From contig JBDLRS010000011.1 in NCBI GenBank assembly GCA_039799965.1, forward strand, positions 1,234-65,233: a stretch of DNA of 64,000 bases, read 5' to 3'. The notes under the pieces are model-generated. The model did no database searches, had not been told where the DNA came from, and saw only the letters and a list, made by a program, of their open reading frames with translations. The position numbers and the translations under genes were made by a program. Below, piece after piece: positions 4,598-59,574 of this stretch (positions within the stretch are counted from its first letter, which is position 1; each line of letters begins with the position of its first letter). The DNA is from Pseudomonadota bacterium (lineage in GTDB: Bacteria > Bdellovibrionota_C > UBA2361 > OMII01).

Positions 4598-5782
4598 ATG
4601 ATGAACCCCCGAATAGCCTCCATGCGCACCTACACCGCGGCGCGAAAAATGCAGCTATTCGCGTCGCTTGGACGCCCGATCGTCGCTGACCTCACCATCG
4701 GAGAACCACAACATGAGCCTGATCCGAAGGTTATTGAGATATTAAATTCATACGCGTATGAGTCAGTGAGTCGATACCCGAAAACCAAGCAAGAGGCGTA
4801 TCTGACCGAGGCGATCATCGCAGCTAATCTTCACTCTAAGAAGCTTAAGGGAACCATCCACGATACGCAGGTTTTGGCGGGGCTCGGAAGTGGTGAGTTG
4901 TTGTACTCCTTTGCCACCGCGGGCCTTGATCCGGCGAAACCCTACGTCCTGATTCCGAATCCAGCGTATCAGGTGTATTCCTCAGCGACCCAGCTCGCTG
5001 GTGGTATTCCGTACTACTTCAATCTGACCAAGGAGAATAATTTCCAACCCGACCTGGCTCGCATTCCCCGCGCGATCCTTGAGCGAACGAGTTTGTGCTA
5101 TCTGAACAGCCCCAACAATCCGTGCGCCGTCTCATACACCGAGGAAACTCTGCGGGGGATCGTGCTTCTCGCCCGTGAGCACGGATTCGCGGTCGCGTCC
5201 GATGAGTGCTACAGCGAGATTTATTTCGATCAAAAGCCTGTTAGTATGCTTGAGGTATGCGCAAACCTCGATGGCGACAACCTATTCAAGAATGTCGTCG
5301 CCTTCGACACCCTCTCGAAGCGAAGCAGTCTTCCAGGACTTCGCTCCGGCTCGATAGTCGGTGACGCTGAACTTGTTTCGAACTATCTTAAGATACGATT
5401 GAGTGAGCGCAAGGTGCTCCCGAATAACGTGCAACGAGCGTCGGCCTACGCATGGACGAACTACGAGGACGTCGCAAGAAGTCGAGAGCTCTATCGACAA
5501 AAATTCGAGATCGTTCGTAGCGCGTTTGAGAGCATCAATCGCCCCATCACCTTGCCTGATGGCTCCTTCTATTGTTGGCTCGACATCTCGTCGCTCAATC
5601 AAAACGATGAGACCTTCGCGCTCGAACTCGCCAAGGAGACAGGGATCCTCACGTTCCCAGGAAGTTACTTCTCGGTCGTTAGCGACGGTGTTAATCCCGG
5701 AGCCGGATTTATTCGCATCGCGCTCATCGATACCGTTGAAGCGACCAAGACAACCATTAAAACGTTAATGCAGTATATTTAA
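4598..5782 (+). CDS. dapC: class I/II aminotransferase, N-succinyldiaminopimelate aminotransferase (DapC)-like
   Basis: 394 aa PLP aminotransferase fold (LSKRSSLPGLRSG is the Lys-containing region). It lies immediately upstream of dapD and dapE on the same strand. Confidence 0.6.
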   Translation: MMNPRIASMRTYTAARKMQLFASLGRPIVADLTIGEPQHEPDPKVIEILNSYAYESVSRYPKTKQEAYLTEAIIAANLHSKKLKGTIHDTQVLAGLGSGELLYSFATAGLDPAKPYVLIPNPAYQVYSSATQLAGGIPYYFNLTKENNFQPDLARIPRAILERTSLCYLNSPNNPCAVSYTEETLRGIVLLAREHGFAVASDECYSEIYFDQKPVSMLEVCANLDGDNLFKNVVAFDTLSKRSSLPGLRSGSIVGDAELVSNYLKIRLSERKVLPNNVQRASAYAWTNYEDVARSRELYRQKFEIVRSAFESINRPITLPDGSFYCWLDISSLNQNDETFALELAKETGILTFPGSYFSVVSDGVNPGAGFIRIALIDTVEATKTTIKTLMQYI

Positions 5783-13265: not shown

Positions 13266-13393
13266 CTATTCGTGAAATCGAGTGGGTAGGGCTCGGTGTG
13301 ATCCCAACGTGCACGTGGAAAGGCGCTATGTATAGGCCAAAGCAAGGGGTTACGTTACACCTATGCTCGTTGGCATCCAGTCGATTCCACGAA
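13266..13393. repeat. R2 MITE-like repeat, copy A (about 128 bp, imperfect TIR CTTCGTGRAATCGASTGG)
   Basis: Aligns by eye to 15021..15168. The shared core is TCGTGAAATCGAGTGGGTAGGGCTCGGTGT-ATCCC-ACGTGCACGTG...GCCAAAGCAAGGGTTTACGTTAC...GCTCGTTGGCA. Confidence 0.6.
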
Positions 13394-13629
13394 GAGCCAC
13401 AAAAAAATCAACAGGTGCTGCGAGCCTTTTGTCGTAAAACGAGTGTAGCATTATTTTCCTTACGGACTATGGAGTAGCTCGGGTACAGCGGTCTGACCAA
13501 AAGTAGCCCCGCTACGGAGTAAAGGGAAATACGGAGCAAAGGGAAAAGGATGTTGCGCCACAATAGCGATCGCAGCATGGTAAGGGTGCCGTACCGGATC
13601 AGAGGACGAACAGCGTAAGGGGCATATGC

Positions 13630-15020: not shown

Positions 15021-15168
15021 CTTCGTGAAATCGAGTGGGTAGGGCTCGGTGTTATCCCGACGTGCACGTGCACGTTCACGTTCACGTGGAAAGGGAGCTA
15101 TGCCTGAGCCAAAGCAAGGGTTTACGTTACCTCTGTGCTCGTTGGCACCCACTCCATTCCTCGATAAG
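15021..15168. repeat. R2 MITE-like repeat, copy B, with expanded CACGTG/CACGTT hexamer tract
   Basis: Direct-orientation match to 13266..13393. Carries an internal (CACGTK)n expansion at 15071..15097. Confidence 0.6.
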
Positions 15169-15292
15169 CCAATAAGTAACTCATTGGAGCCTGGTCGCAG
15201 GTTTAAGTAAAAAGATAGGCCGTTGAATCTTTTGAAGTCACCATAACTCGTATGGCGACCCTGCAAGAAGCAGTTCATCGATACGAGAGCAA

Positions 15293-23956: not shown

Positions 23957-24237
23957 AGGAATTTCCTTCTGAGCGCGTTTCGCCGGGAGTGTATACCGGA
24001 AAACGGGATTCCTCAATCTTTACCTACAAATAGAGGCGTATTTCGATAGGGAACCTGGCCCCTGACCGGCTGTTTAACGGGCTGGAATTGGAGCGAGAAG
24101 GAGTTCGGAGGCTTCGGCAATGGTCCCCCGCATGGTCGCTCTGGTCTTTGGAGGGTAGAAGGACTCATATCGCACAAACCGGACCGGTTACACGGTGCCC
24201 CACGCCCTGTTTCACGGCGTAGTACGATGTTCTCCTA

Positions 24238-24258
24238 GCAGGGTGGTGAAAAATATTC
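24238..24258. repeat. solo terminal-repeat fragment of the 181-bp MITE (TAGCAGGGTGGTGAAAAAT) in the purL/prkA divergent region
   Basis: Exact match to the left TIR of the MITE copies, but the sequence beyond diverges (ATTCAAAAAAGG...). Confidence 0.35.
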
Positions 24259-24624
24259 AAAAAAGGCGCGATGAAGCCAATCGATTTTGGGGGTGTGACA
24301 TCAAATAATTAACGGCTAAGTGCGCGAAGGGCAGGGACGCTCGACAGTAATGGGTTTTCGGTCTCTTCGGAGATTGTTTACCGTAAGAGAAACGAGATTC
24401 CTCATATAGTTTGCCGTACGAGCCGATTGAAGTTGTTGATGTCTTTAGTAGCGGGTCGTTTCCCGAGGTGGGTTTTTGAGCTGTGGCTTCACAGGTCAGA
24501 TGGCTCAATTTCCGGAGGCGATTAAGAGCAGACCCTGACCATCACGGCGGCGCGTGAGGAGGATCTCAAGCATGCTCTTTGCAATGTGTGGTTGGTGGTT
24601 CTGCGAACGTAAGGAGAAGGTTCC

Positions 24625-27826: not shown

Positions 27827-29284
27827 ATGTCACATAACATCGACGAACTTGCTGATTGGGATAAACGGATACTGGAGCTCGTTCACACGTACGGGCTCAA
27901 CTGCTATCCCCAAGAGTTTGAGATCTGCGATCACAACGAGATGTTGGGATATATGGCGTACACCGGCATGCCATCGCACTATCCACACTGGTCATACGGT
28001 AAATCGTTCGAACGTCAAAAGACCATGTATGACTACGGTGTGTCGGGTCTTCCGTACGAGATGGTGATCAATTCAAATCCCTGTCTTGCGTACTTAATGC
28101 GTGATAATTCACTCCTGTTACAGGTGCTCACTATAGCCCACGTATACGGCCATAACGACTTTTTCGCAAACAACTTCACCTTTACCTCGGGAACCAAAGC
28201 GGAGCACGTTCTTCAGTCCTTTAAGAGCCACGGACAGAGAATTAGCTCGTACCAAGAGGATCCCTCGATCGGTGTCGAGGCTGTCGAGAACATGATCGAT
28301 CACGCGCACGCGATCTGTTACCAACGGTCTCGAAATCTCGCTATTACACAACTCTCTCAGGATGAGCAGGTTCTTCGGGCGTGGGAGCGATCGCAGCCAG
28401 CGGCGGACCCGTGGCGAGAAATTCATCCGGCGAAGGAGTATAAGCCACCTAATCTTACACGGGTTCCAGCGGAGCCGCAGGAGAATATCCTGCAGTTTAT
28501 CGCCAAGTATAATCCGTACCTCCCTGAGTGGAAGAGGGACATCCTGTTGATCGTTGACGCGCAGACGCAGTACTTCATGCCGCAGATGGACACCAAGATC
28601 ATGAACGAGGGATGGGCGAGCTACTGGCATCATAAGATCCTTAACGAGCTTAAGCTCCCGCAAGGGATGCACCTTGAGTTCCTCGTACGGCACAACCAGG
28701 TGTTGCGCCCCCACCCAGGTGGGCTCAATCCATATCACCTCGGATTCGTTCTGTGGCACGATATCGAGCGTCGCTGGAATCAGGGAGACATTGGTAGAGA
28801 GTGGTCGGACGATGAGCCGCCAACCGCTGAAGGGATCAAAGACGAGAACGAAACCCCGGGTCGTAAAAAGATCTTTGAGGTACGCGAAGCGGACCGTGAC
28901 CAGTCCTTCCTTCGCCGATTTCTTACACGCGAGATAATGGAGGAGCTGCACCTCTTCCAGCACGAGCGCCGGGGAAAAGATCGCGTTATCACCAAGGTCG
29001 CCAGCGAAGAGGGGTGGCGCGAGGTCAAAGAGAACCTTATCAGGAACGTTGGTACCGGCTCTATTCCGGTTATAAAGATCGAGGATGCGGATTTTGGGAA
29101 GAGCCGCATACTCTATATGAAGCACTACCATGACGGTCGAGATCTTCAGCTTGAGTACGCGGAGCACACGCTTAAGCACGTGGCGGCTCTGTGGGAGCGT
29201 GAGGTAGTGCTCGAGACCTCGATTAACGGCAAGGAGTCGCTTCTTAAGTTGGTTGGCGATTCCCTCAAAATTGAGCGACTCTAG
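27827..29284 (+). CDS. spoVR: SpoVR family protein
   Basis: 485 aa third member of the prkA-yeaH-spoVR triad. Its TAG stop lies inside the CTAG end of the MITE. Confidence 0.85.
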   Translation: MSHNIDELADWDKRILELVHTYGLNCYPQEFEICDHNEMLGYMAYTGMPSHYPHWSYGKSFERQKTMYDYGVSGLPYEMVINSNPCLAYLMRDNSLLLQVLTIAHVYGHNDFFANNFTFTSGTKAEHVLQSFKSHGQRISSYQEDPSIGVEAVENMIDHAHAICYQRSRNLAITQLSQDEQVLRAWERSQPAADPWREIHPAKEYKPPNLTRVPAEPQENILQFIAKYNPYLPEWKRDILLIVDAQTQYFMPQMDTKIMNEGWASYWHHKILNELKLPQGMHLEFLVRHNQVLRPHPGGLNPYHLGFVLWHDIERRWNQGDIGREWSDDEPPTAEGIKDENETPGRKKIFEVREADRDQSFLRRFLTREIMEELHLFQHERRGKDRVITKVASEEGWREVKENLIRNVGTGSIPVIKIEDADFGKSRILYMKHYHDGRDLQLEYAEHTLKHVAALWEREVVLETSINGKESLLKLVGDSLKIERL

Positions 29285-29469
29285 CAGGGTGGTGAAAAAT
29301 GGTTCCGTCGTGAGCATTTTGAAAGTTTTGACGAAACAAGGCGGAGATGACGAAAAAACCGGAGGCGTATCCACCGAGATACGTTGAGGATTTTTTCGGC
29401 AGCTCCAACGAAGTTGCAGTCACACTATCGAAATGCGCAACAGGAAATCATTTTTCACCACCCTGCTAG
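29281..29469. mobile_element. 181-bp MITE-like element, copy 1 (core 29285..29465) with CTAG on both flanks
   Basis: Perfect TIR CAGGGTGGTGAAAAATG / CATTTTTCACCACCCTG. Nested internal stems (ACGTATC-CACTGA-GATACGT; CGAAAAAA/TTTTTTCG). Sits between convergent spoVR and pntB. Confidence 0.8.
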
Positions 29470-30851
29470 TTGGCTTTGAGGCAGTTTACCAGCCCCTCGC
29501 ACACCTTCTTCGCGTCTCCGAAGATCAGCGAGCAGTTATCGAGGTAGAACAGGTCGTTTTCGACACCTGAATAGCCTGGGTTCATGGAGCGTTTGATGAC
29601 ATAGACCATCTTCGATTTGTACGCCTCAAGGATGGGCATGCCGTAGAGTGGGCTCGACGTATTGGTACGTGCCGCTGGATTAACCACGTCATTGGCTCCG
29701 ATGACGAGAACCGCATCGGCGCGAGCGAAGTCAGGGTTAATCTCCTCAAGTTCGAGAACTGAATCGTAGGGGATCTCCGATTCAGCCAGGAGCACGTTCA
29801 TGTGTCCAGGCATACGGCCAGCAACCGGGTGAATCGCGAATTTAACCTCAACTCCTCGCGATTGAAGTTGCTCAAAGAGCTCTTTGACTGCGTGCTGCGC
29901 TTGCGCGACCGCCATACCGTACCCAGGCACGACGATGACGCTCGAGGCGTTTTCGAACATGAACGCGGCATCCTCAGTGCTTGCCGACCGACATGATCTC
30001 TTCGACGCGTCTGCGGCGGCTGCCTCTGCTGTTGTTCCAAATCCACCGAGAATAACATTCATGAGAGAACGGTTCATCGCCTTACACATGATGTAGGAGA
30101 GGATAGCTCCGCTGGAACCAACGAGAGCGCCCGTAGCGATGAGCAGTTGATTGTTGAGTGTGAATCCGGTGGCTGACGCAGCCCAGCCCGAGTAGGAGTT
30201 AAGCATCGATACAACCACCGGCATATCCGAGCCTCCAATCGGGAGTACAAGAAGGAATCCAAGTAGGAGGGCAATAGCCGTTACCGCCACGAAGAGTGTG
30301 ATAGTGTGGTCGTACGCGAAGAGCGCCGATAGCACCACGACAGCCCCGATCAGGAGCGCGTTGAGCGCATGCTGTCCCTTGAAAATGAGCGGGGCCGACC
30401 CGAGCAGTGCTTGGAGTTTTCCAAACGCGATGAGCGACCCGGTAAAGGTTATAGCGCCGATTGCGCTTCCGACCACAAGCTCAGTGAGAAGCACAGCGTT
30501 GGTGTGTCCATCATGAACGTGCATGAGGTAGGTTCCGGAGGCGACTAACACGGCGGCGAGGCCTACGAAGCTATGCAGAGCTGCGACGAGTTGTGGCATA
30601 GCGGTCATCTTGATCCGCATCGCGAGTGGAACTCCGATTACCGCGCCTGCTGCGAGGCCGCCGAAGATGATGCCGTAGTTTGAGACGTTGGGGTGAAAGA
30701 GGGTAACGACGATGGCGAAAGCCATGCCGAGCATCGAGAAGAGATTTCCTCGAAGGGCGGTCTTGGGATGACTGAGTCCTTTGAGCCCGAAGATAAACAT
30801 GATCGATGCGACAAGGTACGCGAAGGCGAAGAAGTCGTGAGGTAGATTCAT
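29466..30851 (-). CDS. pntB: NAD(P) transhydrogenase subunit beta
   Basis: 461 aa with multi-TM N-terminal half and soluble dIII NADP(H) domain (GYGMAVAQAQ...). Its stop codon (CTA on +) is the CTAG flank of the MITE. Confidence 0.9.
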   Translation of the reverse strand: MNLPHDFFAFAYLVASIMFIFGLKGLSHPKTALRGNLFSMLGMAFAIVVTLFHPNVSNYGIIFGGLAAGAVIGVPLAMRIKMTAMPQLVAALHSFVGLAAVLVASGTYLMHVHDGHTNAVLLTELVVGSAIGAITFTGSLIAFGKLQALLGSAPLIFKGQHALNALLIGAVVVLSALFAYDHTITLFVAVTAIALLLGFLLVLPIGGSDMPVVVSMLNSYSGWAASATGFTLNNQLLIATGALVGSSGAILSYIMCKAMNRSLMNVILGGFGTTAEAAAADASKRSCRSASTEDAAFMFENASSVIVVPGYGMAVAQAQHAVKELFEQLQSRGVEVKFAIHPVAGRMPGHMNVLLAESEIPYDSVLELEEINPDFARADAVLVIGANDVVNPAARTNTSSPLYGMPILEAYKSKMVYVIKRSMNPGYSGVENDLFYLDNCSLIFGDAKKVCEGLVNCLKAN

Positions 30852-37480: not shown

Positions 37481-37603
37481 ATACGTCCGTAACGTGCTGG
37501 GGAGACTAGCCTCTCTGGCGGATAGAATCAAGCGGGAAGGGAGCCTTTTCGTCGTTGGGGCGGACAAACTCGGCGGTGGACTGAGATTCGGTGTGAGCGC
37601 GGG

Positions 37604-37636
37604 TACGTTCACGTTTACGTGCACGAGCACGTTCAT
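37604..37636. repeat. ACGTKC-type hexamer repeat block (GGGTACGTTCACGTTTACGTGCACGAGCACGTTCA)
   Basis: Near-identical (2 mismatches) to 59538..59574. Related tracts occur at 15071..15097 and, inverted, at 59447..59486. Confidence 0.5.
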
Positions 37637-37727
37637 GGGGGCAGAGGTGCGTGATTCGTTGGAGGATTTTGGGGTGGGTGGCATAGCCTGGGTAAAGTCT
37701 GATATACCAAAACATCTTGGAGGAGTT

Positions 37728-39125
37728 ATGCCCAACTACGTTTCGATTCACGATATTTCCAACGATAAGGTGCCTGTGGGTACGCTCCAGCTCGCTGGCT
37801 GGATCCGAACTCATCGGCAGTCGAAGCGAGTGTCCTTCATCGAGTTGTCGGACGGAACCTCGGTCACGAATCTCCAACTTGTGGTCGACCCGCAGTTGCC
37901 GGCCTATGCGGAGAACGCTTCAAAGCTCTCAACGGGCGCTTCCATTAAGGTTTCAGGAGAGTTGGTCGTGTCTCCGGCAAAGGGGCAGAAGTATGAGTTC
38001 CAGGTTAAGGAGCTTGAGCTCCTGGGAGAGGCTGACCCTGAGATCTACCCACTTCAAAAGAAAGGGCACTCCCTTGAGTTTCTCCGTGAGCAACTTCACC
38101 TTCGACCTCGAACCGCTACGATGGGCGCGGTGCTGCGCATTCGTTCCGCGGCGGCGTTCGCCGTTCATAAGTTCTTTACTGAACGTGGATTCTTCTACAT
38201 CCACACCCCTATTATCAGCACCTCTGATTGTGAGGGAGCTGGCGAGATGTTTCACGTCTCGACGTTCGATCCGGAGAACCCTCCGCGTTTGAACGGCAAG
38301 GTGGACTTTTCTCAGGACTTCTTCAAGGAACCGGCGAGTCTCACCGTTTCAGGGCAACTTGAGGGAGAGATCTGCGCGATGGGTCTCTCAAAGATCTACA
38401 CCTTCGGTCCAACATTCAGGGCCGAGAATTCGAACACGACACGACATCTCGCCGAATTCTGGATGATCGAGCCAGAGATGGCTTTCTACGAGTTGCAAGA
38501 CAATATGCTTCTTGCGCAGGAGTTCGTTCAGGATGTTTTGAAGCAGGTGCTCGCCTCCTCCCGTTCTGAGCTTGAGTTCCTCGCCTCACAGGAGTGGGCG
38601 CAGGAGGGACACCTCGATAACCTTCGTCGCGTTGCGGAGACCCCGTTTACGACGATGGATTACACCGACGCCATTCGCATCCTTGAACAGAGTGGCAAGG
38701 CTTTCGAGTATCACGTGAAGTGGGGGATCGATCTTCAATCTGAGCATGAGCGATTCCTGACGGATGAGTACGTGAAAGGTCCAGTTACCGTTGTGAACTA
38801 CCCGAAGGACATTAAAGCGTTCTATATGCGCCTCAATGAGGACGGTAAGACGGTACGAGCGATGGATGTGCTCGTTCCTCGGTTGGGGGAGATCGTAGGT
38901 GGGTCGCAACGTGAGGAACGCCACGATGTTCTCCTTGAGAAGATCCGCGCCATGGGGCTCGATGAGCGTTCCTACTGGTGGTATCTTGAGCTTCGCAAGT
39001 TCGGTACCGTGCCTCATTCCGGTTTCGGGCTCGGCTTTGAGCGGTTGCTTATGTACCTCACGGGGATGACAAATATCCGAGATGTTATCGGATTCCCTCG
39101 ATTCCCAGGGTTCGCCAAGTTCTAG
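37728..39125 (+). CDS. asnS: asparagine--tRNA ligase
   Basis: Class IIb aaRS with OB-fold N-domain. Motif 3 region GFGLGFERLLMYLTGMTNIRDVIGFPRFPG. ATG (MPNYVSIHDI) is preferred over the track GTG at 37494. Its TAG stop lies in the MITE CTAG. Confidence 0.8.
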   Translation: MPNYVSIHDISNDKVPVGTLQLAGWIRTHRQSKRVSFIELSDGTSVTNLQLVVDPQLPAYAENASKLSTGASIKVSGELVVSPAKGQKYEFQVKELELLGEADPEIYPLQKKGHSLEFLREQLHLRPRTATMGAVLRIRSAAAFAVHKFFTERGFFYIHTPIISTSDCEGAGEMFHVSTFDPENPPRLNGKVDFSQDFFKEPASLTVSGQLEGEICAMGLSKIYTFGPTFRAENSNTTRHLAEFWMIEPEMAFYELQDNMLLAQEFVQDVLKQVLASSRSELEFLASQEWAQEGHLDNLRRVAETPFTTMDYTDAIRILEQSGKAFEYHVKWGIDLQSEHERFLTDEYVKGPVTVVNYPKDIKAFYMRLNEDGKTVRAMDVLVPRLGEIVGGSQREERHDVLLEKIRAMGLDERSYWWYLELRKFGTVPHSGFGLGFERLLMYLTGMTNIRDVIGFPRFPGFAKF

Positions 39126-39310
39126 CAGGGTGGTGAAAAATGGTTCCGTCGTGAGCATTTTGCGAGTTTTGACGAAACGAGGCGGAGACGACGAAAAAAC
39201 CGGAGGCGTATCCAATGAGATACGTTGAGGATCTTTTCGGCGGCTCCAACGAAGTTGCAGTCAAACTATCGAAATGCGCAACAGGAAATCATTTTTCACC
39301 ACCCTGCTAG
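39122..39310. mobile_element. 181-bp MITE-like element, copy 2 (core 39126..39306), CTAG flanks
   Basis: Same perfect TIRs as copy 1, with a few internal substitutions (for example TTGCGAG vs TTGAAAG). Sits between asnS and the ornithine aminotransferase gene. Confidence 0.8.
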
Positions 39311-41922: not shown

Positions 41923-44202
41923 CTACGATCGGCTCATCGCGCGAGGTGACATGATCTCTGAGAGCGCGAGCTGCTCCTGCGCCACAGACAGAGGCAGCGC
42001 GTATTTTGAACGGGAGTGCTCGACGCATGCCTTCGCCGAATTCTCAGTGGTGGCAGCGTTCTGAACGTCGAGGGTATATCCCGAGAATGCCTCTAGCACC
42101 TCTCCGTCGATACTCATCTTCACATAAAACTCCCGAAGGGCAAGGTTGAGGAGATCTTCGGATCCGAATCGTGGTTTAAATTCCTGGGCTACGGTGGCGG
42201 CGTCATCAGCCCCTACTCGGAAGCACACCAGGTTCGCCACATTTCCAAAGATGGTCTCCTTGACGGTTTGCGGTAGTTGACCGAGGAACTGATTGGCGAA
42301 GGTGAGGCAGAGGCGGTACTTGCGCGACTCGCTGAGAATCTCTCCGAATGACGGAGTAGCGAAATTCTGGAACTCATCGACGTACACGTAAAAGTCCTGA
42401 CGAGACTCTACCGGAATATCAGCTCGTGACATCGCTGCTTCGTAGAGCTTCCAGATGATGAGGGACCCAAGCAGCGAGGCGTTCTCGGCACCAAGTACAC
42501 CCTTCGATATCTTGAAGATTACGATCTTGCGGGAGTCGATGAAGTCACGGAAGTCAAAGGTGTTTGTCGGCTGTCCGAGAATGTTTCGAATCATGTCCGT
42601 AGCGAGCAACTCATCTAAGCGATTGAGAAGTTGCGACACAGGCCCCTCCTCAAACTCTTGGCGCCGAGATGGAAACTCAACCTCCCAGAATCTTCGCACC
42701 GATTCATCGGTGCTTCGGGATACGACCTCTCTGCGGAACTCGTCGTCTGAGAGAAGTCGACGGAGCGAGACGATACTAGCGCCCGGGATGTTCAGGAGCG
42801 CGTTGATGGCGTAGCGCAGGATATGGTCCATCTTTTCCGACCACCCATCGCCGAAAACCCGCTTAAAGGTATCGAGGAAGCTGAGCATGACTCGAACTTT
42901 GAGGTCCGGTCTGATAGGAATCATCGGGTTGAAGCTCGGCGGGTGCTCCAGATCGCTCGGATCGAAGATGACGACATCCTTGAGTCGGTGTTTAGGGATC
43001 GTCTTTAATATCTCGTCAGAGAGGTCCCCGTGAGGATCGAGCACCGCGCAGCCGAAGCCGTTATCGATATCAGCCTTGATGAGAAGTTGAAGGAAACACG
43101 ACTTCCCGTTTCCGGATTTTCCGAGAGCGTAGAGATGGCGGCGTCGATCGAATCGGCGAAAGCCAAACGGGGTCGTCTGATCGCGATAGTTAGTGACGCC
43201 AAAAAAACTTATCTGAGGATCGTTTGGAGTGGATGGCAGGGTTCGCGGTGGCGGCGCTTTGCGGGAGAGCACGAGAGCTGTATTGGGAAGCGTCCCGGCG
43301 GACGGAGGGTGCCACAGGGTTGAGAGTTCAATCGCCGATACCATGAAGGGGCTATTGAATCTTCGTTGCTGCATGAGCTTAATCACGGAGGGCCCATACC
43401 GAAGCGGTCGGGTTCGAAGCCGATTCTCATCCGCCGTATTGAGATACTTCACCGCGTGGGTGGCCGCTCGTACATGGAGGGCGAGGCGGGATTGGAGTGA
43501 AGCTGCGTCTTTCTTTGATGCGTTCTTAGGAAGGTCGGCGAACGCCGTAACGCGATAGTTGATCTTGAAGAGGCGAGAGAGGCACTTCTCTTTGACAAGT
43601 TTTATGCTCTGGTTGGCGATATCCTTCTTAAGCCACGTTCGCGTCCTGAAGAGGCGGCAGAACTGCTCGATCTTTCGGAGCGCGCCTAACTTCGCATGAA
43701 GTAACGGGGTGTCGCGAAGTGGTCGAACAACAACCTGGACCAGGACGTTCTCGAACTCGGAGATTCGCGACAGGGTAGTAACGACAGGAGCCATACTATC
43801 CCACGCGAACGCCCGGAAGTTCTGAAGCGGATAAATGTCCGGCCACTCCAGGTCGAGATCCGCGCCAACCGCGACGGTTTGGTCATTTATCTCTGTGGTG
43901 TAGTCGTCAATGTACTCAATTTCAACGTCAGCCCACCAACCGTATATCGCTTTGGTAATAAGTTGCAGCGTTTCCTCTTCAGCGGCGATACAGATGTAGA
44001 CGATCGTTCCCTTTGCGTACAACTCAAGGGAGAAAGGTTCGGTCGTTTGCTCAGCGATATCGTTGAGCTGAGTAAAAAAGAAGTTGGACGTAACCAATGC
44101 CCACTTGGTCATCCTCATAGCATCGCCAATCGTCATCATGGCTCTCGGGACGTGGATCAGGGCTACGCGCATGGTGGGAGGTATCTCAAGGGATATAAAC
44201 AA
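41923..44202 (-). CDS. soluble P-loop NTPase of the TrwB/TraD/VirD4 coupling-protein-like (AAA_10/DUF87) family
   Basis: 759 aa with no TM segment. Walker A LYALGKSGNGKSCFL is followed by VLDPHGDL. Walker B DFYVYVDEFQNF. Distal LTFANQFLGQL. The unknown N-terminal ~330-aa domain is not conserved with any family I can name. Confidence 0.5.
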   Translation of the reverse strand: MFISLEIPPTMRVALIHVPRAMMTIGDAMRMTKWALVTSNFFFTQLNDIAEQTTEPFSLELYAKGTIVYICIAAEEETLQLITKAIYGWWADVEIEYIDDYTTEINDQTVAVGADLDLEWPDIYPLQNFRAFAWDSMAPVVTTLSRISEFENVLVQVVVRPLRDTPLLHAKLGALRKIEQFCRLFRTRTWLKKDIANQSIKLVKEKCLSRLFKINYRVTAFADLPKNASKKDAASLQSRLALHVRAATHAVKYLNTADENRLRTRPLRYGPSVIKLMQQRRFNSPFMVSAIELSTLWHPPSAGTLPNTALVLSRKAPPPRTLPSTPNDPQISFFGVTNYRDQTTPFGFRRFDRRRHLYALGKSGNGKSCFLQLLIKADIDNGFGCAVLDPHGDLSDEILKTIPKHRLKDVVIFDPSDLEHPPSFNPMIPIRPDLKVRVMLSFLDTFKRVFGDGWSEKMDHILRYAINALLNIPGASIVSLRRLLSDDEFRREVVSRSTDESVRRFWEVEFPSRRQEFEEGPVSQLLNRLDELLATDMIRNILGQPTNTFDFRDFIDSRKIVIFKISKGVLGAENASLLGSLIIWKLYEAAMSRADIPVESRQDFYVYVDEFQNFATPSFGEILSESRKYRLCLTFANQFLGQLPQTVKETIFGNVANLVCFRVGADDAATVAQEFKPRFGSEDLLNLALREFYVKMSIDGEVLEAFSGYTLDVQNAATTENSAKACVEHSRSKYALPLSVAQEQLALSEIMSPRAMSRS

Positions 44203-44262
44203 CTAGCATTAGTCTACCCCCAATTGAGAGGCTATTGAAGAGGTCTCTTTGAACCACGGGCT

Positions 44263-44451
44263 TGAGCAGGGTGGTGAAAAATGGTTCCGTCGTGAGCATT
44301 TTGAGAGTTTTGACGAAACGAGGCGGAGACGACGAAAAAACCGGAGGCGTATCCACTGAGATACGTTGAGGATTTTTTCGGCGGCTCCAACAAAGTTGCA
44401 GTCAAACTATCGAAATGCGCAACAGGAAATCATTTTTCACCACCCTGTTAG
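44263..44451. mobile_element. 181-bp MITE-like element, copy 3 (core 44267..44447), flanks TGAG/TTAG
   Basis: Same TIRs (right end CACCACCCTG). Lies in the divergent upstream region of the T4CP-like ATPase and the coiled-coil gene. Confidence 0.75.
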
Positions 44452-44499
44452 TAAATACCTCTCTACCCCGCCTCGAGCGACCAGTGCTACTATCTCCCC

Positions 44500-45159
44500 A
44501 TGGACGACCTTTTCCTCATTCCGGCCCTCCTTGTCTCGGTGACCGTGCCGTTGGCAGGACTACTGGTAGGCAAGCGGCTAAGCGGGGGAGACTCTGATCA
44601 AGAGATCTCAAGAATCCGAGAGGAAGCGAGGGTGCTTGAAACAAAGATCATAGATCTTCTCGCCGGCGAGGAGCAGATGATCTCAAAGAAGCAACTCGCG
44701 GCCATTCAGAGAAAGGCCACCGAGTATCGGTCGACGGTAGAGTCGCAACGGAAGGCCCGGGTCGAGCTTGAGCAAAAGCTTACGAGCGCGCACGCCGATG
44801 TGATAGCAAGAGAGGCGGCTCACCAGGAGATGAAGGCGGAGAAGCAGGACGATGAGGTCGCACTCCAGTCAGTCATGTCTAATTACAGTGATATATCCAC
44901 CGAATCCGTGTCACTTGAGCGCAGGCTCGCGGAATCACTCAAAACTATCGACAAGATGTCGACCGAGATCTCGATGACTGAGGATCAACGGGCTGTATTC
45001 GAGGCGCTCTCAAACGCGCTAACGAACGCGAGTGCCCAACTCCGTGACGTAATAGTCGCCCATCAAAACGTCTACGAACGACTTGAGGGGTTGCGCTCTC
45101 AGTATACCGATCTCGAAGCTGAATACATCAAGCTTGTAGAGCTCCAGTTAGAGTCCTAA
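44500..45159 (+). CDS. membrane-anchored coiled-coil protein
   Basis: N-terminal TM helix (LFLIPALLVSVTVPLAGLLVG), then about 190 aa of heptad-rich charged sequence. Confidence 0.4.
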   Translation: MDDLFLIPALLVSVTVPLAGLLVGKRLSGGDSDQEISRIREEARVLETKIIDLLAGEEQMISKKQLAAIQRKATEYRSTVESQRKARVELEQKLTSAHADVIAREAAHQEMKAEKQDDEVALQSVMSNYSDISTESVSLERRLAESLKTIDKMSTEISMTEDQRAVFEALSNALTNASAQLRDVIVAHQNVYERLEGLRSQYTDLEAEYIKLVELQLES

Positions 45160-45161
45160 CA

Positions 45162-45962
45162 TCACAACATATCGTCGAGAACCTTTCCGAGGTGCTCCAA
45201 GGAAGCTGTTCGGACCGACTCATCCACTAAGGTGAACACCTCCTGAATGATGAAGGGGTCCCTGCAGTGCCATACAAGTCCAGATCGACTAACCGTCATA
45301 GTATACGAGGTGCTAATGTCCTTCTTCATGCAGGCGACAGTAACGGTGAGGTTGTTAATCTCGGTGCGATATCCTTTAACTCCGACATCCCCCTCAACGA
45401 TCTGCCAATCGCCCGCGGTGGTTTCTCCGATAGCCTCTTTGATATTTGCGGTGAGACGAGCCACCGAATCGTTGAAATCTCGACGGAGGCTCTCACGGTA
45501 CTGCTTCACAATCAGCTCAATCTCAAGATAGAGCTGCTCCGCGACATCTCCCTCAGCGAGCACCTGCGGGGTCTTTTCGATTCCCCCTGCGCCACGAAAC
45601 GCCGGGTCGAGAAGCGCCTTTGGAGACCAGCCCCGACCTCGCAGCTCAATTAAGAACCGGGAGGGACCCGCTACGCTTAAACTGTATCCCCCGCCGAAGA
45701 AATTATTGGAGACGGGGGTGGACGACCTCAACACGAGCGTTCCGCTTTTTGTGTCTGTGAAGAATACCTGTTCCCAAGTCTCATGAGAGCGCGGAAACCG
45801 CCGATTCGGATCAAGCGGCTCGCCACCCTGCTCCCACCGTTCAGGGGCGGTATTCGCAAGTGTATTGCGAATCTTATCAAGGAGCGACGCAGGCCCCTTC
45901 ACTGGATGAGCAGTTACGCCCTCGGTCTGGCCTGCTCCCGGATATCTTTTCTCATCGTTCAT
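45162..45962 (-). CDS. hypothetical protein
   Basis: 266-aa ORF convergent with the coiled-coil gene (3-nt gap). No recognisable motif. Confidence 0.35.
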   Translation of the reverse strand: MNDEKRYPGAGQTEGVTAHPVKGPASLLDKIRNTLANTAPERWEQGGEPLDPNRRFPRSHETWEQVFFTDTKSGTLVLRSSTPVSNNFFGGGYSLSVAGPSRFLIELRGRGWSPKALLDPAFRGAGGIEKTPQVLAEGDVAEQLYLEIELIVKQYRESLRRDFNDSVARLTANIKEAIGETTAGDWQIVEGDVGVKGYRTEINNLTVTVACMKKDISTSYTMTVSRSGLVWHCRDPFIIQEVFTLVDESVRTASLEHLGKVLDDML

Positions 45963-46099
45963 GGGAAATCCTACTCCTCATTGTAATGCTCGTTACGACT
46001 AAGTTCAACGAATACCCCACCAAGGCGCTGTCGCAACGCTAGGTTATGACCTCTCGGGCGCTGCAGTAGCGTCTCCCCCGTTTGCTAGCTCCGACCCCC

Positions 46100-48742
46100 C
46101 TACACAGCGTCCCGCTCCGGGTGTGGCGCCAGAACCTCGCGAGGCTTAACACCATCCATCTTTCCAACAACCCCCTCCCGCTCCATCATCTCAATAATTC
46201 GAGCGGCCCGGTTATAACCGATGCGAAAGGTTCGTTGGATCATCGAAGTTGATGCCTGTCCCTTTTCTAGAACAAGTTCAACGGCTTTGTCATAAAAAGG
46301 ATCGAACTCCTCGCCCTCTCCTCCCTCGCCGTTACCATCTTGACCGCCAGAGCTACTCTCCTCAGCGAGAGCCTTCTCACAGGCAGCGATAATCGCCTCG
46401 TCGTACTGAGGCTGACACTGAGACTTTAGCGAGGTCACAACCTTCTGAACTTCGTGGTCCGACACAAACGCTCCGTGCACACGCTTCAATGGCACTGCGC
46501 CTGGTAACATAAAGAGCATATCTCCCTTGCCGAGAAGCTTCTCCGCTCCCATCGAATCAAGGATCGTTCGAGAGTCGATACGGCTCGTTACCCGGAATGA
46601 GAGACGAGCCGGAAAGTTCGCCTTAATGAGGCCGGTGATAACATCTACCGAGGGACGCTGGGTAGCAACAATAAGGTGAATACCAGCGGCTCGGGCCTTT
46701 TGCGCAAGCCTCGTTATGAGCTCCTCGATCTCCCGTCCCACCGTCAACATCAGGTCCGCGAGCTCGTCGATGACAATTATCAATTTGGGCATCGGGCGAA
46801 GCTGCTCCGGAGCTGTCGGTTCAACGGTGGGATGCCTCTCGCCCTCCCCTAAAGCGCTACCCTCCTTCGCCTCGACAGGTTGCTGCGCGAAGAGCTCCGT
46901 TTGAGCCATCGAGGGGTGGTCCCCGGACACGATCTGGTTATATCCATCGATATTGCGAACGCCGAACTTCTGCATATATCGGTAGCGGCGCTCCATCTCC
47001 TTGACGGCCCATCCCAGGACGGCCTTCGCCTGACGAGCGTCGGTTACCACCGGCACCCGTAGATGCGGAATGCCATCGTAGATACTGAGCTCAAGCACCT
47101 TCGGATCGATCAGGATCAATCCCAGCTCTGCCGGATGCGCTCGATAGAGCAGACTCAAGAGGATCGCGTTAATAGAAACCGACTTACCAGTACCGGTAGC
47201 TCCCGCCATGAGAAGATGCGGCATCGACGCGACATCAACAACCACCGCCTCGCCGTAGGTGTCCTTCCCAAGGGGCACACTCAGGATAGATTCGCTCTGT
47301 CTCAACAATTCACTCTCCAGACAGTCGCGAAGCCGCACAACCGCGCGATGCTTATTCGGAACCTCTATGCCCACCGTTCCCCGCTTAGGAATTGGAGCAA
47401 TGATACGGATGCTGCTGGCACGGAGACTCATGGCGAGGTCATCCTGCAAAGCGGCGATCCTTCCCACCTTGACACCCGCCGCCGGCTCAAATTCGAAGAG
47501 GGTAATAACGGGACCTGGATGCACCTGAGTTACTCGACCGGCGATATTGAAATCACGCAACTTGGACTCGATCTGCTCCGCTTTCTCACGAAGCTCTTCA
47601 TCGTCATCTCCCAGCTCCTGCTCCTCCTCTTGCGTGAGTAGCTTAAGGTCTGGGGCAACATAATCATCGAAGGCTGGCGGCGGTGTCTCTCCCTCTCGCT
47701 CAACAACCTTCCTCTTTTTTTCAGGAGCAACACGCAGCGGTTTAGGGTGCGGCGAAGGCTCAGCAGCCTTAGGTTTCACGATAATAGGATCGGCTCGTTC
47801 ATGCACGGGTTCACTTGGCGCGCTCTTCTCGACCACCAACGGCCGCCCATCATCCTCCCCTTCAGCGACCACCTCGGCACCATCATTACCGAGCGTCCAG
47901 CCCTCATCCTCTGCGACCTCCTCCTCGTCCTCAACAACCTCATCGGAGGGAGTTTGATTCTTTCGGAGCTTAGGCTTTGGAGTTGGAGCGTCCCCCTCGT
48001 CCTCCCCCTCGTAAGGACCGGACGCAAAGAACAACTTACCGACCACGGGCACCATCAGCTTAAGGAGCGCCGCAAGCAGCCCGACGACAATCAAACCTCC
48101 CCTTGCGATTATGATCGGAAACTCCACGCACAGCAGGGTCAGCCCCGCGCGAACGAGCCACCGAACCCCCGAAGCGATATCGCCAAGGGATCGTTGTAAA
48201 ACAACCGCACAACAGATTGCGCACATAAGCGCCGTGGCAACGAACGTTCCACCGACACCAAGGTGACCTTGACCGAAGGTGGCGATCGTCGCCCCTATCG
48301 AGCCTGCCCACGAAGGGGTAAGAACCGCCGCGACCAAAGCTGATACACAGAAAACGAGGGCGATTCCGGCGCCGACAACCACGGCGGGAGAATAGAGACG
48401 TGGTCGATCATCCTCCGACTTCATCGTTCGGAAGAACGCGAGCCACATCAAGCCGGCAACCGGTAACAGCGCAACGGCCCCCAAACTCCCCACCAGCAAG
48501 GTCGCTATAATGTGCCCCGCAGGCCCCATGATGTTGCGAGATGGAGTGGGTTGCTGCCCCTGATATACGTAGGAGAGGATGCTTGATAGAAGAAAAAGCC
48601 CACTTGCCAGAAGCAGGAGGGAGACAAAGTCACGAACCCAGCCGCGCGGCCTCAGAGGAGCCTTCGCTGCGGCGGCTCCCACCTTGGCTGACTTTTGAGT
48701 TTTGGCACGGCCCGTGGTCCGTCGCTTCTGTGGTGCTGTCAT
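46100..48742 (-). CDS. ftsK: DNA translocase FtsK
   Basis: N-terminal polytopic domain, acidic linker, motor domain with Walker A GATGTGKS and Walker B IIVIDELAD, and C-terminal gamma (wHTH) domain. ATG at 48742 preferred. Confidence 0.9.
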   Translation of the reverse strand: MTAPQKRRTTGRAKTQKSAKVGAAAAKAPLRPRGWVRDFVSLLLLASGLFLLSSILSYVYQGQQPTPSRNIMGPAGHIIATLLVGSLGAVALLPVAGLMWLAFFRTMKSEDDRPRLYSPAVVVGAGIALVFCVSALVAAVLTPSWAGSIGATIATFGQGHLGVGGTFVATALMCAICCAVVLQRSLGDIASGVRWLVRAGLTLLCVEFPIIIARGGLIVVGLLAALLKLMVPVVGKLFFASGPYEGEDEGDAPTPKPKLRKNQTPSDEVVEDEEEVAEDEGWTLGNDGAEVVAEGEDDGRPLVVEKSAPSEPVHERADPIIVKPKAAEPSPHPKPLRVAPEKKRKVVEREGETPPPAFDDYVAPDLKLLTQEEEQELGDDDEELREKAEQIESKLRDFNIAGRVTQVHPGPVITLFEFEPAAGVKVGRIAALQDDLAMSLRASSIRIIAPIPKRGTVGIEVPNKHRAVVRLRDCLESELLRQSESILSVPLGKDTYGEAVVVDVASMPHLLMAGATGTGKSVSINAILLSLLYRAHPAELGLILIDPKVLELSIYDGIPHLRVPVVTDARQAKAVLGWAVKEMERRYRYMQKFGVRNIDGYNQIVSGDHPSMAQTELFAQQPVEAKEGSALGEGERHPTVEPTAPEQLRPMPKLIIVIDELADLMLTVGREIEELITRLAQKARAAGIHLIVATQRPSVDVITGLIKANFPARLSFRVTSRIDSRTILDSMGAEKLLGKGDMLFMLPGAVPLKRVHGAFVSDHEVQKVVTSLKSQCQPQYDEAIIAACEKALAEESSSGGQDGNGEGGEGEEFDPFYDKAVELVLEKGQASTSMIQRTFRIGYNRAARIIEMMEREGVVGKMDGVKPREVLAPHPERDAV

Positions 48743-48862
48743 GGTAACTGCTCTAGCATGAGGAATAAGCAAACACGGCTTAATCGTACCACTAAGATGC
48801 AGCTCTACCCAGAGGGAATCTGCGACAAACAGAACATCTTTTTAGGCATGCTGGTGCGGTTA

Positions 48863-49519: not shown

Positions 49520-49893
49520 AACCACACCGCTCCTTATCAGCCCTAATCCCCGCACAATATCCACCCAACGCCGAAGCGTCCAGTTACGAGGACGATACCC
49601 CACATTACCGAGCTTCGACACCTCAAAACACGCGCGGAAAGTCAAGCAATCAAACTCAAAAATCATCGAATCGTTTGCGCAGGGGAAACAATCATAAGGC
49701 GCAGAGATTGCGTGTGAATCGAGTGGTATATGCGCATCCTCATACCCACCCGACGGTGCGTAGAGGCGATATACTTCACCCGAGGTTCCCTCTTGATCTC
49801 ACAAGGGAAACTGCTTTACCCTTCCCCACAAATACGAAACAGAACACGGGCTTGCTCTCGCAAAACGCAGCTCTTTACTTGGAAAGATGTACT

Positions 49894-50364
49894 ATGACCA
49901 CCAAAGCTACAGAAAAAATCATCGAAGCTCTCACGCAACTCGTAGAGGGATTCGCGGAGCTTCAAGAGAAGCTTGAGGAGGACTACGATCCCGATATGGA
50001 GACCGAGTCTGACGATGACGATACTGATAGCGACGATGAAGAGGGCGCGACAGGTATAGAGGAGGCCATCGTTACCGAGATCAAGGCGGCCGTTGAGTCG
50101 GTCATCGAAAACGAGGACTGCGCCCCTGAGGATCTCGCATCCATAGTGTCAGCCCTTACTGGCGCCCTCGAGGAGATCGCTCCAGAGGTATTCAGCCACG
50201 GCGAGGCTGAGGAGGAAGAGGAAGAAGAGGAGGAGGAGTACGAAGAGGTCGACGACGAAGACTTCGAGGAGGACTACGACGAGGACGAAGACGAGGACGA
50301 AGACGAAGACGAGGACGAGGACGAGGACGAAGACGAGGATGAGGACGAAGACGATGATGACTAG
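49894..50364 (+). CDS. highly acidic protein with C-terminal poly-Asp/Glu tail
   Basis: ATG at 49894 (MTTKATEKIIEAL...). The last ~60 residues are almost pure D/E (EEEEEEEEEEYEEVDDEDFEEDYDEDEDEDEDED...DDDD), encoded by a GAGGACGAAGAC-type microsatellite. Confidence 0.5.
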   Translation: MTTKATEKIIEALTQLVEGFAELQEKLEEDYDPDMETESDDDDTDSDDEEGATGIEEAIVTEIKAAVESVIENEDCAPEDLASIVSALTGALEEIAPEVFSHGEAEEEEEEEEEEYEEVDDEDFEEDYDEDEDEDEDEDEDEDEDEDEDEDEDDDD

Positions 50365-50542: not shown

Positions 50543-50731
50543 ATAGCAGGGCGGTGAAAAATGGTTCCGTCGTGAGCATTTTGAGAGTTTTGACGAAACG
50601 AGGCGGAGACGACGAAAAAACCGGAGGCGTATCCACTGAGATACGTTGAGGTTTTTTTCGGGGGCTCCAACGAAGTTGCAGTCAAACTATCGAAATGCGC
50701 AACAGGAAATCATTCTTCACCACCGTGATAG
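50543..50731. mobile_element. 181-bp MITE-like element, copy 4 (core 50547..50727; degenerate TIRs), ATAG flanks
   Basis: Left end CAGGGCGGTG and right end CACCACCGTG each carry one substitution. Sits between the convergent acidic-protein gene and the M16 peptidase gene. Directly preceded by two tandem TTTACCTAACGGGCTA units. Confidence 0.7.
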
Positions 50732-59377: not shown

Positions 59378-59446
59378 ATGCTACCTAAACCTAGCAGGTT
59401 GCCATACGTTGCGGGTTGGAGAAACGGAAAAGAGCTATTCTACTCC

Positions 59447-59574
59447 GTAAACGTTCTCGTAAACGTGAACGTGAACGTACACGAACGAAGGTGCCGACCT
59501 TCTAACCATTAGGACCAGATATACGCTTATCTCCCGGGTACGTTCACGTTTACGCGCACGAGCACGTTCACGTG
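59447..59574. repeat. inverted pair of ACGTKC hexamer-repeat arms (59447..59486 and 59538..59574) in the ppc upstream region
   Basis: Left arm CGTAAACGTGAACGTGAACGTACACG is the reverse complement of the right-arm core GTACGTTCACGTTTACG. The spacer is about 50 bp. Confidence 0.5.

Follow-up and report, generated by a model that had tools for sequence, protein, structure and literature searches.

A dispersed family of putative 181-bp miniature transposons in uncultured freshwater Bdellovibrionota-like bacteria

Introduction

The 64,000-nucleotide stretch of contig JBDLRS010000011.1 analysed here (assembly GCA_039799965.1; hereinafter, the window) contains four closely similar intergenic repeats of 181 bp, the first of which lies between the convergent genes spoVR and pntB. 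The questions raised by this locus are what these repeats are, how they reached their present sites and which enzyme moves them. The repeats are very probably non-coding DNA transposons without a transposase gene of their own, i.e., MITEs (miniature inverted-repeat transposable elements). The kind of element is ordinary; the family itself is real and well supported, and its copies are scattered over a set of uncultured Bdellovibrionota-like bacteria from fresh water.

Copies and ends of the element in the window

A preceding sequence-only reading of this DNA had described four copies, and all four were recovered in place, each exactly 181 bp long, with pairwise identities of 93-98% and in one common orientation; the flanking tetranucleotides (CTAG/CTAG, CTAG/CTAG, TGAG/TTAG and ATAG/ATAG for copies 1 to 4, respectively) are also as it had reported. 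Copy 3 is the window copy nearest to the family consensus (3 differences). The features are as follows.

29281..29284, no strand: left target-site duplication of copy 1, CTAG, in which TAG is the spoVR stop codon
29285..29465, + strand: MITE copy 1 (the copy named in the sequence-only reading), 96% identity to the reference copy
29285..29301, + strand: left terminal inverted repeat of copy 1, CAGGGTGGTGAAAAATG, 0 mismatches
29351..29398, + strand: central hairpin module of copy 1, an imperfect stem-loop (GGCGTATC, loop, GATACGTT) preceded by A6 and followed by T6
29449..29465, - strand: right terminal inverted repeat of copy 1, 0 mismatches
29466..29469, no strand: right target-site duplication of copy 1, CTAG, in which CTA is the pntB stop codon
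39126..39306, + strand: MITE copy 2, flanks CTAG (39122-39125) and CTAG (39307-39310)
44267..44447, + strand: MITE copy 3, flanks unmatched, TGAG (44263-44266) and TTAG (44448-44451), divergent genes on either side
50547..50727, + strand: MITE copy 4, flanks ATAG (50543-50546) and ATAG (50728-50731), convergent genes on either side
24235..24255, + strand: solo end-like site, CTAG followed by 16 of the 17 bases of the terminal repeat (24239-24255), CAGGGTGGTGAAAAATA

The terminal 17-mer CAGGGTGGTGAAAAATG has nine matches in the window at up to 3 mismatches, compared with 0.05 expected from shuffled sequences. These are the six exact ends of copies 1-3, the two mutated ends of copy 4 (left, CAGGGCGGTG..., 1 mismatch; right, CACGGTGGTGAAGAATG, 2 mismatches) and the solo site, a fifth site that had been missed in the original count. 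Perfect terminal inverted repeats of 17-21 bp had been claimed for all four copies; three copies are indeed perfect at 17 bp, whereas copy 4 carries the mismatches just mentioned, and perfection stops at 17 bp, 20/21 being reached only with one mismatch. The solo site has no matching second end, its interior is unrelated to the MITE, and it lies at the 5' edge of a conserved region upstream of prkA, where the orthologous sequence of L091 is only partly similar (loci outside the window are designated by L numbers); it is either the remnant of a copy or a look-alike. As the sequence-only reading had stated, the window holds no transposase gene: none was detected in Pfam scans of its 47 non-overlapping open reading frames (ORFs) of at least 90 codons, a set from which seven already identified or named ORFs were left out.

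Distribution of the family

A BLAST search with one copy retrieved 36 non-redundant full copies, along with many partial ones, from about nine related genomes, in line with the dispersed family that had been anticipated from the window; these copies yield a 181-bp consensus from which most of them diverge by 2-8%. In a scan with the end pattern that covered one genome per species, at least 76 loci were found, at least 72 of which belong to the family. The latter come from about 9 metagenome-assembled genomes labelled Proteobacteria, delta proteobacterium, Deltaproteobacteria, Bdellovibrionota or Bacterium, one of which holds about 47 of the matches listed; those with a stated source come from lakes and ponds. 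Many of the matches outside the window are located about 100 bp from a contig end, as is typical where a repeat breaks the assembly, and contigs from other samples that carry the genes of the window also end inside the element. Lake time-series metagenomes in which this population is present include JGI 3300043427, 3300047510 and 3300044701.

Neither an Rfam family nor a published description of the element was found, so that calling it novel-looking was fair, and, judging from Rfam and the literature search, the 181-bp family is apparently undescribed. The same literature search turned up no paper on a MITE in Bdellovibrio-type bacteria. The element adds a well-defined repeat family for a lineage of uncultured freshwater bacteria in which few mobile elements have been described; the general understanding of MITEs is unchanged.

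Target-site duplication and location on stop codons

Exact 4-bp direct repeats border 20 of the 32 full copies from across the genomes for which both flanks are available, compared with 8.8 expected (p<1e-5) when the right flanks are shuffled among the copies; none of 100,000 permutations reached 20. Over the range of 1-8 bp, no alternative duplication length agrees with any of the 32 copies. Flanks other than CTAG match as well: TTAG/TTAG occurs in five copies, and ATAG/ATAG, CAAG/CAAG and CTAA/CTAA are each seen in one. The first base of the 4-bp repeat covaries between the two sides. The target derived from 119 ends is C or T (71% and 19%, respectively), T (94%), A (93%), and G or A (83% and 14%), which corresponds to YTAR, with CTAG itself present at 52% of these ends. 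The 4-bp duplication proposed in the sequence-only reading therefore holds beyond the window, whereas its NTAG-type target proves slightly too wide: 91% of the ends have C or T at position 1, and position 4 is G or A. In the window, CTAG is about fourfold rarer than expected from base composition (57 occurrences compared with 245).

Copy 1 fits exactly between the stop codons of the convergent spoVR (27827-29284, + strand) and pntB (29466-30851, - strand) genes, which are separated by a gap of 181 bp, and both stop codons fall within the flanking CTAGs. A class II aminoacyl-tRNA synthetase gene (37494-39125) has its stop codon in the left flank of copy 2, as the TAG of that flank. Altogether, 8 of the 32 copies adjoin an ORF of at least 100 codons whose stop codon is a flanking TAG or TAA; such a location of a quarter of the retained copies exactly on a gene stop codon would follow from the presence of TAG on both strands of CTAG. 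The target duplication would regenerate the stop codon at the insertion site, and the family is a clear case in which insertion at CTAG falls on stop codons and these are restored. The orientation of the copies relative to the neighbouring genes shows no bias (9 vs 13). All 32 copies examined are intergenic and, together with the lack of an Rfam match, this bears out the claim that the interior is non-coding. In silico removal of the element restores a credible gene in none of these copies; an ORF across the reconstructed junction in L068 was considered as a disrupted gene and rejected because its translation is of low complexity and looks non-coding.

We also observe that copy 3 is adjoined by a gene for a TraG/VirD4- or HerA-like ATPase (41923-44202), with weak Pfam matches to T4SS-DNA_transf, TraG-D_C and DUF87.

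Evidence of movement

Several loci contain derivatives in which the ends are retained and the interior is shortened or replaced. The shortest are 47 bp long, one in L075 (5521-5567), with CTAG/CTAG flanks and the same ends, and another in L167; L030 and L026 hold derivatives of 123 bp and 104 bp, respectively, whose ends and flanks are again the same. L143 contains a 298-bp element with an unrelated interior, the same ends and CTAA/CTAA flanks, and variants of about 250 bp consist of the 181-bp element with small nested palindromes added. Where pntB and the synthetase gene end, next to copies 1 and 2, respectively, homology to other species breaks off precisely at the bordering CTAG. Relatives in which SpoVR is 85-91% identical contain no copy within 21 kb each, and one relative has a copy elsewhere. 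The element is absent in related species after the orthologous ends of spoVR, pntB and the asnS-type gene, which does not bear out the objection that the copies could belong to longer intergenic sequences conserved at orthologous sites.

On the transposon interpretation, a DDE transposase encoded elsewhere would bind both ends and excise the element, which would be inserted at a 4-bp staggered cut in YTAR, and repair of the stagger would yield the duplication.

Several observations weigh against this interpretation. No autonomous element with these ends appeared among the matches listed or in the fragmented metagenome assemblies covered by the searches described below, the similarity of the ends to those of the IS5 family is modest, and 4-bp duplications are also made by other families, e.g., IS701 (the end consensus of which does not fit). 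The flanks are unmatched in 12 of the 32 copies. A clean empty site was not found in a near-identical strain, every contig of the same population carrying the copies, and a scan of the metagenome collection for the exact empty-site pattern of copy 2 yielded no match. The apparent conservation of the ends, with a substitution rate of 1.7% compared with 5.9% in the interior, is overstated, since exact matching to an end was how the loci were retrieved. The intergenic flanks of related species have diverged too far for a clean empty site to be defined; a comparison of the L094 copy with the window as a possible empty site was set aside for the same reason, and the flanks of that copy, CGAC/CTAA, are unmatched. 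The copies in this population look old and fixed rather than recently active.

The moving enzyme

The search for a partner transposase took several routes. In about 0.7 Mb of related contigs, no repeats of at least 230 bp were found as a sign of an insertion sequence (IS), and a phmmer search with the E. coli IS5 transposase InsH against the six-frame ORFs of the related loci yielded no match, although assemblies of this kind usually drop insertion sequences. No autonomous element was detected in the plasmid search or in the scan of viral contigs. In metagenome contigs, the end followed by a base absent from the MITE (C or T) occurs at 76 loci among the matches listed, mostly chance matches from unrelated habitats, and none of the listed matches is an autonomous element.

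Individual candidates were rejected as well. Ordinary genes follow the CTAG and end in L102 and L114; the 3,034 bp between two ends in L099 contain no ORF; and the two exact ends located 2.7 kb apart in L026 belong to a truncated copy and to the 104-bp derivative, with ordinary genes between them. Four exact 20-mer matches in Chitinophagaceae, Gammaproteobacteria, Planctomycetaceae and Thiotrichales were considered as ends of a parent IS; the adjoining ORFs encode MurB, EngA, MurG and a secretin, so that these are chance matches.

Elements of the IS5 group, as described in ISfinder, make a 4-bp duplication at a YTAR-type target. We lean towards an IS5-family transposase of this type as the enzyme that moves the element, because the target and the length of the duplication match and MITEPsy1 provides a precedent. 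MITEPsy1, from Pseudomonas syringae pv. phaseolicola, is 100 nt long with 18-nt ends and has CTAG or YTAA as insertion sites, where it duplicates 4 nt; it is thought to be derived from the IS5-family element ISPsy2, and its transposition has been shown experimentally (PMC3189936). The two elements are alike in being non-coding miniatures with terminal inverted repeats of about 17-18 nt and no transposase of their own, in the CTAG or YTAA insertion with 4 nt duplicated, and in the presence of TGAAAAA at positions 9-15 of both terminal repeats. They differ in length (100 vs 181 nt), in the start of the ends (GGAAGG compared with CAGGG here, with 8/18 bases matching), and in abundance, with 6 copies of MITEPsy1 in one genome vs dozens per genome here, in about nine species-level genomes. 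Furthermore, the likely partner IS of MITEPsy1 is known and its transposition demonstrated, unlike in the present case, and the full-length palindrome is a feature of the present element. Within the IS5 family, the 17-bp end is 11/17 identical to the ISPsy19 end GAGGGTGTAGACAAAAT, but ISPsy19 duplicates 3 nt, not 4. The ends of IS5 itself, GGAAGGTGCGAA..., share only about 7/16 bases with the end studied here, and the present element differs from IS5-family members also in lacking a transposase gene.

The alternative that best survives comparison with these data, although we consider it unlikely, is that the MITE is moved by a non-IS5 family that makes duplications of about 4 bp (IS701, ISH3 or IS1380) or by an undescribed group. 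This possibility agrees with the lack of IS5-like transposases in the lineage sequences searched by phmmer and with the CAGGG start, which differs from the GG or GGAAG start of the cited IS5-group ends; moreover, IS701 elements almost always produce exactly 4-bp duplications (PMC2266710). However, the published consensus of IS701 ends (---YACT-Y--YR) does not fit CAGGGTGGTGAA (PMC2266710). Insertion at YTAR/CTAG with a 4-bp duplication is, by contrast, the documented behaviour of an IS5-family-derived MITE, and the absence of a transposase is weak evidence given that metagenome-assembled genomes routinely lose insertion sequences.

Elements of the IS630 type insert into CTAG and duplicate TA. 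It is very improbable that the present repeats are MITEs of this type (IS630/Tc1-mariner), in which case CTAG would be targeted, only the central TA would be duplicated and the element would measure 183 bp (GCAGGG...CCCTGC). The predominance of CTAG among the flanks fits the TA and 4-bp models alike, but the outer bases covary between the two sides in the matched TTAG, ATAG and CTAA pairs, and under duplication of TA only, nothing would make the base that then closes the element agree with the one preceding the left TA; furthermore, the central TA itself is replaced in CAAG/CAAG.

Fold of the element

The strong structure that had been noticed in the sequence was borne out by folding: the whole element forms one hairpin of -86 kcal/mol (z = -10), compared with -77 kcal/mol on the other strand. 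The 181 bp are a palindrome over their full length, with arms about 75% identical as inverted repeats. The inner hairpin, previously given as ACGTATC, is in fact a CGTATC/GATACG stem of 6 perfect pairs with additional G-T wobbles.

Among 35 copies, paired positions of the interior differ from the consensus half as often as unpaired ones (4.5% vs 9.0%), and three base pairs covary between subfamilies. These are pair 40-142 (A-T in 19 copies, G-C in 14), pair 47-136 (an A-T, G-T, G-C series) and pair 81-100 (a G-T, G-C, A-T series). They represent few independent events, and either copying between the arms of the palindrome or selection could produce them. The central A6-hairpin-T6 module is also found alone, without MITE ends, in a related genome (L067 6491-6535, L080 2581-2625, L027 2196-2231 and L048 1741-1766), and in these occurrences outside the element the stem shows one compensatory double change, C-G to T-A.

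The stability of the fold, the conservation and covariation of paired positions and the double change in the free-standing hairpin would all be compatible with a repeat that is not a transposon but a structured RNA gene, a terminator cassette or a palindrome resembling repetitive extragenic palindromic (REP) units or bacterial interspersed mosaic elements (BIMEs), with recombination or a REP-associated tyrosine transposase as the means of dispersal. We regard this as hardly credible, given that the defined duplicated target, the sharp ends of the terminal inverted repeats and the end-only deletion derivatives are marks of cut-and-paste transposition. REP units are 20-40 nt long and cause no target duplication, in contrast to a 181-bp unit with defined inverted-repeat ends and a 4-bp duplication. 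Orientation is also unbiased, and nothing points to a single transcribed strand: an excess of G-U pairs, sought as a trace of strand-specific RNA selection, gave no signal, with 4 such pairs on each strand. Rfam yielded only a tRNA at the gathering score in the window, and the best hit of a permissive search with the element, to an archaeal snoRNA model (E=0.59), is noise.

Within the transposon interpretation, the central module (A6, imperfect stem-loop, T6) looks like a bidirectional terminator although not a canonical one, and a simple terminator scan did not call its hairpin a canonical terminator. Speculatively, the centre of the foldback palindrome may terminate transcription in both directions. 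A further, rather doubtful extension is that the central module is a mobile two-way terminator or insulator under selection, spread by the transposon between tightly packed convergent genes; it is suggested by the subfamilies keeping the hairpin through compensatory changes, by the occurrence of the same module outside the element, and by the CTAG target, which puts copies on stop codons without damaging genes. The second possibility, held as doubtful to the same degree, is a transposase of an undescribed group.

The Correia/NEMIS elements of Neisseria, ERIC and RUP are likewise abundant, intergenic, strongly hairpin-forming elements of 100-200 bp, often located beside gene ends, and some elements of these types affect transcript termination or stability. 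They differ from the present family in having no known sequence similarity to it and in belonging to other bacterial groups; in addition, Correia and RUP duplicate TA, not 4 bp.

Rearrangements at the copies

Some contigs disagree with the window exactly at the copies. L082, from the same Joint Genome Institute (JGI) sample, is 99.9% identical to the window over copy 3 and the 2.4 kb to the right of it, but its left flank (1-1265) is wholly unlike window positions 44203-44266. The break is at the element, and the flanks are unmatched in both versions. Either copies recombined with one another, or the assembly became chimeric at the 181-bp repeat.

At the spoVR-pntB junction, the MITE alone separates the two genes in the window (29284-29466), whereas in L091 (11459-16566) five genes lie between them, encoding a glycosyltransferase, a glutaredoxin/ArsC-like protein, an EamA-like protein and two unknowns; in L175, the first two of these genes directly follow spoVR, and neither of these two related species has a MITE there. 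The junction may have arisen by deletion between two copies or by assembly collapse. Misjoins at the MITE copies are conceivable in the window itself. Since the element breaks assemblies and sits where contigs disagree, masking it is advisable when these genomes are binned or scaffolded.

Other observations in the window and in related genomes

The related genomes contain several repeat families. Runs of 6-bp-periodic ACGTNN, e.g., CGGGTACGTTCACGTTTACGTGCACGAGCACGTTCA, are present in the window at 15049-15096, 37600-37635, 59446-59481 and 59535-59570, those at 59446-59570 forming an inverted pair. In a related genome, a second MITE-like family, flanked by CTAG and with ends GGGAAGCGAGGCAAAAC (L033 around 5057-5200, L081, L049, L040, and L080 from 2512), has this sequence as its interior; these ends are absent from the window. 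One related genome has a repeat of about 119 bp (L077 280-398, L060 4998-5114 and 1038-1156, L032 3327-3443) that is 99-100% identical from contig to contig and is often found at contig ends. A repeat of about 130 bp occurs twice in the window (13269-13399 and 15022-15171; 80-96% identity), flanking a polysaccharide-flippase-like gene.

Upstream of prkA, in the prkA-DUF444-spoVR operon, about 340 bp (24285-24624) are conserved across the species with 85-91% identical SpoVR. This region contains invariant blocks, e.g., GACATCAA..TTAACGGCTAAGTG and AGCCGATTGAAGTTGTTGATGT, between which pairing over about 120 nt is possible, and has no match in Rfam; it may represent a hitherto undescribed RNA, either a leader or a regulatory one, the covariation support from five sequences being weak.

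The cumulative GC skew peaks at about 44000-46000, beside ftsK (46100-48772, - strand), which may mark the replication terminus. Finally, the ORF at 49675-50364, which has no Pfam match, encodes a tail of about 50 residues (50203-50364) that consists almost entirely of Asp and Glu.

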